This document shows, piece by piece, positions 38,452 through 38,592 of a stretch of 40,006 nt of DNA (position 1 is the stretch's first letter; each line of letters starts with the position of its first letter). A program made the position numbers and the translations under genes. The notes beneath the pieces are model-generated. The model did no database searches and had not been told where the DNA came from. It saw only the letters and a list, made by a program, of their open reading frames with translations. The stretch is from a virus (lineage: Duplodnaviria; Heunggongvirae; Uroviricota; Caudoviricetes). The DNA is taken from the IMG/VR virus record IMGVR_UViG_2568526473_000002, positions 1-40,006 of that record. One strand, 5' to 3'.

Positions 38452-38592
38452 ATGCTTATTGGCTATGTACGTGTATCAACAAATGACCAGAACACCGATC
38501 TACAACGTAATGCGTTGAACTGTGCAGAATGTGACCGGATTTTTGAGGGTAAAATGAGAGTGAGCATATTGCGTCACTTCAGCATGCTGTAG
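38452..38592 (+). pseudogene. Truncated serine DNA invertase (Pin/Gin/Hin family), N-terminal 46 codons only
   Basis: MLIGYVRVSTNDQNTDLQRNAL matches the catalytic N-terminus of Pin-type invertases (Ser nucleophile region); frame ends at TAG 38590-38592, whereas intact invertases are about 190 aa. Confidence 0.8.

Follow-up and report, generated by a model that had tools for sequence, protein, structure and literature searches.

Introduction

When the invertase gene beside a tail-fibre inversion switch has been reduced to a stump, is the switch locked in one state, or is it turned by an enzyme that is encoded elsewhere in the cell? This question is raised by a 46-codon ORF close to the right end of a stretch of viral DNA of 40,006 nucleotides, the whole of which is referred to as the window in this work. 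Cross-complementation among the invertases Gin, Cin, Pin and Hin is classical, and Fin of Fels-2 acts on the Salmonella H segment. Here, the remnant of the invertase gene, the switch that adjoins it and the orientations in which the switch is found in related loci are described.

Results

The window is a DLP12-type prophage of Escherichia coli 2012C-4221

The window corresponds, with 99.9% identity, to the reverse strand of positions 1579824-1619829 of the chromosome of E. coli 2012C-4221 (NZ_CP027437.1), and it extends from inside intD, beside tRNA-Arg, to the stop codon of appY. Positions 1-40006 represent a near-complete DLP12-type prophage at tRNA-Arg. It is composed of lambdoid early and lysis genes (including emrE, ybcK, rusA and Q), a packaging and head module with a P27-type terminase and an HK97-type head, and a contractile tail and baseplate of the e14/Mu-like type. 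Its left part is shared with DLP12 of K-12, whereas on the right side the two have sequence in common only from position 38559 (tfaX) onward. Just past the right end of the window (L001, 11523-14243), envY, which is located downstream of appY and ompT, is interrupted by IS100 in the source genome.

The 46-codon ORF contains 35 codons of an invertase gene

The ORF had been described as 46 codons that begin with the catalytic N-terminus of Pin/Gin-type invertases. Its start, its stop and the nature of its N-terminus were confirmed, but only 35 of the 46 codons are those of an invertase. The last 11 are a wrong-frame read of the C-terminal fragment of a tail fibre assembly gene. Residues 1-35 are identical to residues 1-35 of the intact, 184-aa PinE at 30 of 35 positions, and identity ends at residue 35. 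DNA similarity to intact pinE genes ends at window positions 38546-38558. The alignment that had been proposed for defining the truncation point was made at the nucleotide level with intact pinE genes, gin of Mu and hin of Salmonella, and it placed the end of the pin-derived sequence at pin nt 103-104 (window 38554-38555). PGAP annotated two pseudogene fragments at this place (38452-38556 and 38559-38711).

The stump keeps the catalytic-serine motif VRVSTNDQ, in agreement with the motif YxRVST-DQ of the family, and MLIGYVRVSTNDQ is the same in PinE and Gin. The remainder of the catalytic domain, helix E and the HTH domain are missing. Against the Pfam profile PF00239 (Resolvase) the ORF matched positions 2-37 of 145 only (24.9 bits; cutoff 23.3), as compared to the approximately 145 profile positions of a complete resolvase-type catalytic domain with helix E, and the C-terminal HTH_7 domain (PF02796) that is present in intact relatives was absent from it. 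The ORF thus lacks two of the three features by which an enzyme of the Gin/Pin/Cin/Hin type is recognized, and the view of the cognate invertase as a non-functional remnant was borne out.

A full-length reading frame overlooked because of a frameshift or sequencing error had been named as the finding that would overturn this view. In blastn and tblastn searches with PinE of 49 kb around the locus, neither a full-length nor a frameshifted invertase was found; the stump was the sole match, and PinE residues 66-184 gave no tblastn match. The idea of a hidden, frameshifted full-length invertase was rejected, given that no PinE similarity was present past the stump in these 49 kb. At positions 38586-38612 the tfa fragment GTAGATCTGGAAATTACAACGG resembles by chance the pin region that codes for VVWKLDRLG, and the tblastn match of PinE stretched to residue 65. 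This short region was rejected as a second fragment of pin, since the same sequence is found in tfaX of K-12 and in lambdoid tfa genes and is therefore tfa-derived. A scan of positions 38300-39300 revealed no promoters or terminators above background.

The switch retains two crossover sites and two fibre cassettes

The tail-fibre switch that had been postulated next to the ORF is real and comprises two crossover sites, two alternative fibre C-termini and two chaperone genes (Table 1). Exactly two matches to the crossover-site pattern were detected in the window, as compared to none in 100 shuffled sequences; they are inverted relative to each other, and one of them lies inside the fibre gene. 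The inverted repeats are 20 nt long and match at 19 of 20 positions. Their core, CCTTCTCCCAAACCAA, is the repeat core given for the e14 P segment (PMC12529663).

The 212-aa fibre consists of a constant N-terminal part (Sc; amino acids 1-100), which is located outside the switch, and a variable C-terminus (Sv, with the Gp53-like_C domain), which is located inside. When the segment was flipped in silico between the central dinucleotides, the 100 constant residues were joined in frame to the silent C-terminus. This resulted in an open fibre gene of 256 aa with the gene of the 200-aa chaperone directly 3' of it, and exactly this 256-aa protein is present in public assemblies. The locus therefore has the constant N-terminus outside the segment and, inside it, the two alternative C-termini and the two opposed chaperones. 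The adjacent functional invertase gene that usually accompanies G, C and P segments is replaced by the truncated one. The two tail fibre assembly genes converge in the middle of the segment, where their 3' ends share 29 nt (37302-37330).

Table 1. Features of the tail-fibre switch and of the adjoining pseudogenes (window coordinates).
Feature	Position	Strand	Basis and remarks
Expressed tail fibre gene, 212 aa	36247..36885	+	ORF; Pfam PF21882 (Gp53-like_C); crossover site inside gene
Left 26-bp crossover site pixL, TTCTCCCAAACCAAGGTTTTCGAGAG	36524..36549	-	Central dinucleotide 36536-36537; inverted repeat
Chaperone (tail fibre assembly) of the expressed fibre, 147 aa	36887..37330	+	Pfam PF02413, E 6e-34
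Alternative tail fibre assembly chaperone, 200 aa, silent here	37302..37904	-	Pfam PF02413, E 6e-32
Alternative fibre C-terminus (Sv', Collar domain), silent here	37904..38422	-	Pfam PF07484; in-silico flip
Right 26-bp crossover site pixR, TTCTCCCAAACCAACGTTTATGAAAA	38372..38397	+	Central dinucleotide 38384-38385
46-codon ORF	38452..38592	+	ATG 38452, TAG 38590-38592; 35 pin codons and 11 out-of-frame tfa codons
Invertase stump, Pin/Gin-type serine recombinase, codons 1-35	38452..38556	+	PGAP, alignments, Pfam
Predicted Fis-dependent recombinational enhancer	38473..38537		Position-for-position homology with hin and published description of hin
Fusion junction, pin nt ~103-104 to internal point of a lambdoid tfa	38554..38558		Alignments; pattern GARGRTAARATNAGNGTGAGYATATTGC common to all truncated loci
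Tail fibre assembly fragment, C-terminal ~51 codons, equivalent of K-12 tfaX, pseudogene	38559..38711	+	PGAP (N-terminus missing), Pfam

Prophages at three chromosomal sites carry the same pin::tfa junction

Read in its correct frame (38553-38711), the tail fibre assembly fragment matched PF02413 (Caudo_TAP) at positions 80-130 of 131 (E = 8e-17) and did not contain the full-length domain. It is 87-90% identical to tfaX of K-12. Complete tfa genes of lambdoid phages such as ev243 and 2G7b are in turn 92-94% identical to a stretch that comprises tfaX of K-12 and the 160 nt preceding it; pin was therefore fused to a point in the interior of a lambdoid tfa gene. The right end of DLP12 in K-12 (tfaD-ybcY-tfaX-appY) occupies the same chromosomal site, and it is 87-98% identical to the window from position 38559 through appY, but it has neither a pin stump nor an e14-like tail module, and its tfaX reaches at least 160 nt further upstream.

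At least 12 independent sequences, derived from complete and draft genomes and from metagenomes, carry the pin::tfa junction, which in the window is located about 0.55 kb upstream of appY; it is therefore no product of faulty sequencing. Of 5,426 complete E. coli genomes, five have it (strains 2012C-4221, A34, KOr019, P4 and FP4). The prophages of these strains reside at three chromosomal sites, differ in their downstream cargo and share only 81-84% identity. With a degenerate exact pattern across the junction, one IMG/VR contig and two metagenome contigs were recovered in addition. The junction was absent from GTDB species representatives in a pattern search and from isolated phages in a junction search.

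The breakpoint in pin and that in tfa are the same in all copies, which argues for one old event that was inherited by several phage lineages; repeated independent formation of the junction was rejected on the same grounds. A private, recent decay was likewise rejected, as the junction is present at three chromosomal sites in prophages of 81-84% identity. The original prediction had assumed that the rest of the gene was lost by deletion at the prophage end. This did not hold: the fusion joins pin nt ~104 to the interior of a lambdoid tfa gene, and the junction is old and present at three chromosomal sites.

In two e14-like loci with intact pin (L020, positions 10429-10623, and L018), a tail fibre assembly C-terminal stub of 64 aa is located approximately 2.7 kb downstream of pin on the same strand. 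It is unrelated to the fragment described here, and its candidacy as a precursor of the junction was rejected because it has no DNA similarity to the tfa fragment of the window. Recurring tfa 3' fragments at the right ends of such prophages may mark old module-exchange joints.

Truncated loci are found in both orientations

Three contigs that encode the exact 256-aa fibre (L015, L021 and L022) are linked to appY and ompT and have the same pin::tfa junction as the window. In all three, the region corresponding to window positions 36531-38390 is inverted at 99.6-99.8% identity, the flanks are collinear, and the breakpoints of the inversion fall in the crossover sites. Two further truncated, appY-linked loci, L029 and L030, were found by look-up of the 212-aa fibre and have the orientation of the window. 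Over the 5.9 kb compared, no difference was seen between L030 and the window, and both are in the same state. Between L029 (window state) and L022 (flipped), no differences were present in 2,500 nt of left flank, 1,820 nt of segment and 1,600 nt of right flank, so that the inversion is the sole difference over 5,920 positions.

Inversions were also seen in two other lineages with the junction. Viral contig L007 is 99.9% identical to the KOr019/P4 lineage on both flanks and has a 1,880-bp segment inverted. The gut metagenome contig L008 is 99.7% identical to the A34 lineage on the right flank, and its inner flanks are flipped. The segment is thus found in both orientations across assemblies of the same truncated lineage, and this is the case in three lineages. 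In all cases the sequences on the outer side of the crossover sites are preserved, and those on the inner side are exchanged and reverse-complemented, which is the signature of site-specific inversion. As the junction is common to all flipped loci, the flips postdate the loss of the invertase, and the enzyme would have come from elsewhere.

L007 and L008 are metagenome assemblies, in which a chimeric path through the repeat is possible. L015, L021, L022, L029 and L030 are isolate assemblies and do not have this weakness. Short-read assemblers can pick an orientation arbitrarily across a 26-bp inverted repeat when the culture is mixed, but such a mixture would itself imply flipping. Counts of further similar places suggest that more copies exist in both states.

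Judged from these assemblies, the switch is not frozen in the lineage, a statement that refers to the lineage and not to strain 2012C-4221 itself. Of the two outcomes foreseen in the original prediction, the locked switch is refuted for the lineage, though not directly for this strain. The other one, a switch driven in trans, is supported by the two orientations of the truncated locus in three lineages and by the pair L029 and L022, which are identical over 5.9 kb save for the inversion.

The stump coincides with a predicted recombinational enhancer

Wild-type invertases of the Gin/Pin/Hin family require a Fis-bound enhancer in cis. That of hin is 65 bp long, has a Fis site at each end and the AT-rich motifs ATTTA and TAATG between the sites, and lies ~100 bp from hixL (PMC3798978). 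In gin, the Fis sites are part of the coding region; they lie ~550 bp upstream of the start of mom, a position that corresponds to the 5' end of gin (PMC3378877). The position of the enhancer was rebuilt from the published description of hin (PMC3798978) and from the hin sequence, which was fetched via its hixL site. In hin, ATTTA was located at nt 50-54 and TAATG at nt 60-64, and 15-bp G..C cores were located at nt 25-39 and 74-88, 65 bp in total. The centre of the proximal core is ~105 bp away from the centre of hixL, and both values fit the published ones.

The genes pin and hin align codon for codon with an offset of one codon. By this homology, the predicted enhancer of the window has its proximal core GTATCAACAAATGAC at 38473-38487, its distal core GTGCAGAATGTGACC at 38522-38536 and TAATG at 38508-38512. 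The centre of the proximal core would be ~95 bp from the centre of pixR, and the cores are spaced by 49 bp from centre to centre, as compared to ~48 bp between the Fis sites in the family. Both cores carry the G/C dyad at a distance of 13 bp that characterizes the Fis consensus (PMC7166090). The pin-derived sequence ends 17-19 bp past the distal core, and both cores are kept in all nine truncated loci examined.

With its 105 nt the stump would be just long enough to hold the whole predicted enhancer, as far as homology tells, and this is consistent with the flipping observed. All truncated loci descend from one deletion, and the sparing of the enhancer by the breakpoint therefore counts as a single observation that could be due to chance. 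We tentatively propose, as a possibility somewhat short of an even one, that the stump has been kept by selection as a Fis enhancer and that a lineage found at three or more integration sites relies obligatorily on the invertases of co-resident prophages. If so, the locus would be a non-autonomous phase-variation element comparable to non-autonomous transposons, and a pseudogene would survive as cis-regulatory DNA.

Candidate donors of the enzyme in the source strain

An e14-type Pin had been suggested as the donor of the enzyme. This was not confirmed: at the level of megablast, neither a second e14-like fibre region nor a pinE-like 5' end was found in the source chromosome. There is a direct precedent for action in trans: PinQ of the Qin prophage inverts the P segment of e14, and it does so at the repeats that are found in the window too (PMC12529663). 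PinQ is 38% identical to PinE. Donors were looked for with chimeric queries in which a unique anchor from the window was combined with a test sequence and matching places in the source chromosome were counted, a procedure that shows presence only. With K-12 pinQ nt 1-427 as test sequence, one extra place was detected, which represents a candidate PinQ-like locus. One extra place was also obtained with pinE nt 106-555 and none with the last 219 nt of pinE alone; NZ_CP027437.1 thus contains one partial PinE-like candidate locus with similarity to pinE nt 106-336 only. No invertase was present in the first 50 kb of the 74.9-kb IncFII plasmid of the source strain, and no second pin-5'-like sequence in strains P4 and FP4. 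Candidate donors in the source chromosome are therefore a PinQ-like and a partial PinE-like locus, the presence of which does not imply that they are intact.

Discussion

The locus is likely to be a Pin/Gin-type tail-fibre inversion switch that has become non-autonomous, its own enzyme having been destroyed and its cis elements kept, and that is flipped in trans. The truncation, the intact sites and cassettes, and the two orientations among otherwise identical truncated loci are direct observations. From them we infer flips that were site-specific and driven by an enzyme. By an old illegitimate recombination the phage's own invertase gene would have been fused, at nt ~104, with the last third of a lambdoid tfa gene, and the enzyme would thereby have been destroyed. 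The two inverted 26-bp sites, both fibre C-termini with their chaperones, and the enhancer-homologous block in the 105-nt stump have survived. A Pin-family invertase from elsewhere in the host, be it another prophage or a phage-plasmid, would bind both sites and, together with Fis on the enhancer presumably carried by the stump, flip the 1.86-kb segment. Each flip would exchange the 212-aa Gp53-like fibre and its 147-aa chaperone for the 256-aa Collar-domain fibre and the 200-aa chaperone, or vice versa.

Strain 2012C-4221 itself could harbour a locked relic. Its relatives would then have been flipped in trans, while this strain would have no compatible, expressed invertase; the 212-aa state would be fixed, and the silent cassette would be bound to decay. 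We regard this as rather unlikely. It would fit the lack of a second e14-like fibre region or pinE-like 5' end in the chromosome at megablast level, the extra PinE-like locus without a detectable 3' end, the first 50 kb of the IncFII plasmid, in which no invertase was found, and the state of L030, which is that of the window in a locus identical over 5.9 kb. Against it stand the PinQ-like locus in the same chromosome, PinQ being able to flip e14-type sites (PMC12529663), and the silent cassette, which is fully open. In addition, a sister sublineage has flipped with zero substitutions, which indicates a high flip rate in the lineage.

Far less probable are routes to the two orientations that do without an invertase, namely RecA-dependent recombination between the short repeats, or replacement of the segment by that of an intact e14-like prophage which shares the cell and is in the opposite state. 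Donors for a replacement do exist, as intact e14-like prophages with near-identical cassettes in both states are common. Such intact relatives differ by 2-8%, however, and an import from them would usually bring differences, whereas L029 equals L022 at all 5,920 positions. Repeats of 20 nt are below the length that RecA uses efficiently, and those found here match at only 19 of 20 positions. In three lineages the breakpoints lie precisely inside the crossover sites, which neither route would readily explain. That the truncation is an artefact of assembly or sequencing, in a strain that really has full-length pin, can be dismissed as next to impossible. No support for it was found among the data collected; one and the same junction was recovered at least 12 times independently, from complete, draft and metagenome data; PinE similarity past codon 35 is missing from 49 kb; and the stump is followed by a genuine 3' end of tfa, which continues to appY as it does in K-12.

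A switch flipped in trans, as preferred here, can be compared with several known systems. The closest is the P segment of e14 in K-12 with its invertase PinE, together with e14-like prophages, which have the same layout of baseplate, fibre and chaperone genes and the same crossover core; their cassettes are 91-96% identical to those of the window. In contrast to e14, which resides at icd, the element of the window is part of a DLP12-type lambdoid backbone at argU, and its invertase gene breaks off after codon 35, at the fusion with a lambdoid tfa stub. The 5' coding sequences of hin, gin and cin are homologous position for position to the stump, in which both G..C Fis cores and the TAATG at the centre recur, and the distance from the crossover site to the enhancer is similar (~105 bp in hin, ~95 bp to the predicted enhancer of the window). 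The difference is that in the window the block homologous to the enhancer, to which the enhancer role is ascribed by prediction, has outlived its gene.

In the inversion of the e14 P segment by PinQ, as in classical cross-complementation, the enzyme of one element flips the segment of another, which is also what is proposed here. In those cases the target keeps an invertase of its own, whereas the target in the window has none, and its dependence would be obligatory. Fibre loci of xenorhabdicins (tailocins) that have no invertase gene are invertible and are presumed to be served by recombinases encoded elsewhere in the genome (bioRxiv 10.1101/2025.04.19.648921). They belong to another organism and have another repeat, and neither an invertase remnant nor an enhancer has been described for them; the window, in contrast, displays the origin of the loss and a retained cis element.

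Cross-complementation of invertases, and service in trans of invertase-less fibre loci as proposed for xenorhabdicins, were thus known before, and no new mechanism is revealed. What appears to be new is modest and, at the level of sequence comparison, consists of a documented non-autonomous derivative with a visible loss event, a stump that coincides with a predicted enhancer, and probable continued and recent flipping in three lineages. The locus represents a natural dissection of classic site-specific inversion, in which the enzyme is gone and all cis elements are kept. Judged from the comparative data, such a switch continues to work, so that host-range variation of a prophage can depend on which other prophages are present in the cell. 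For annotation and for surveys of programmed inversions it matters that a pseudogene labelled 'recombinase, partial' beside a fibre switch is not equivalent to a dead switch. The locus also lends itself to simple genetic tests, in vivo, of enhancer function and of cross-specificity among invertases, with strain 2012C-4221 or the isolates of L029 and L022 as starting material.

An independent shortening of the invertase was seen in an e14-like locus with the same fibre cassettes (L032, 6206-6565; GCA_019372635.1). The protein encoded there is 119 aa long and consists of the Resolvase domain only, without HTH domain. It represents a different route to loss of the enzyme, in which the 5' end of the gene is kept as well.
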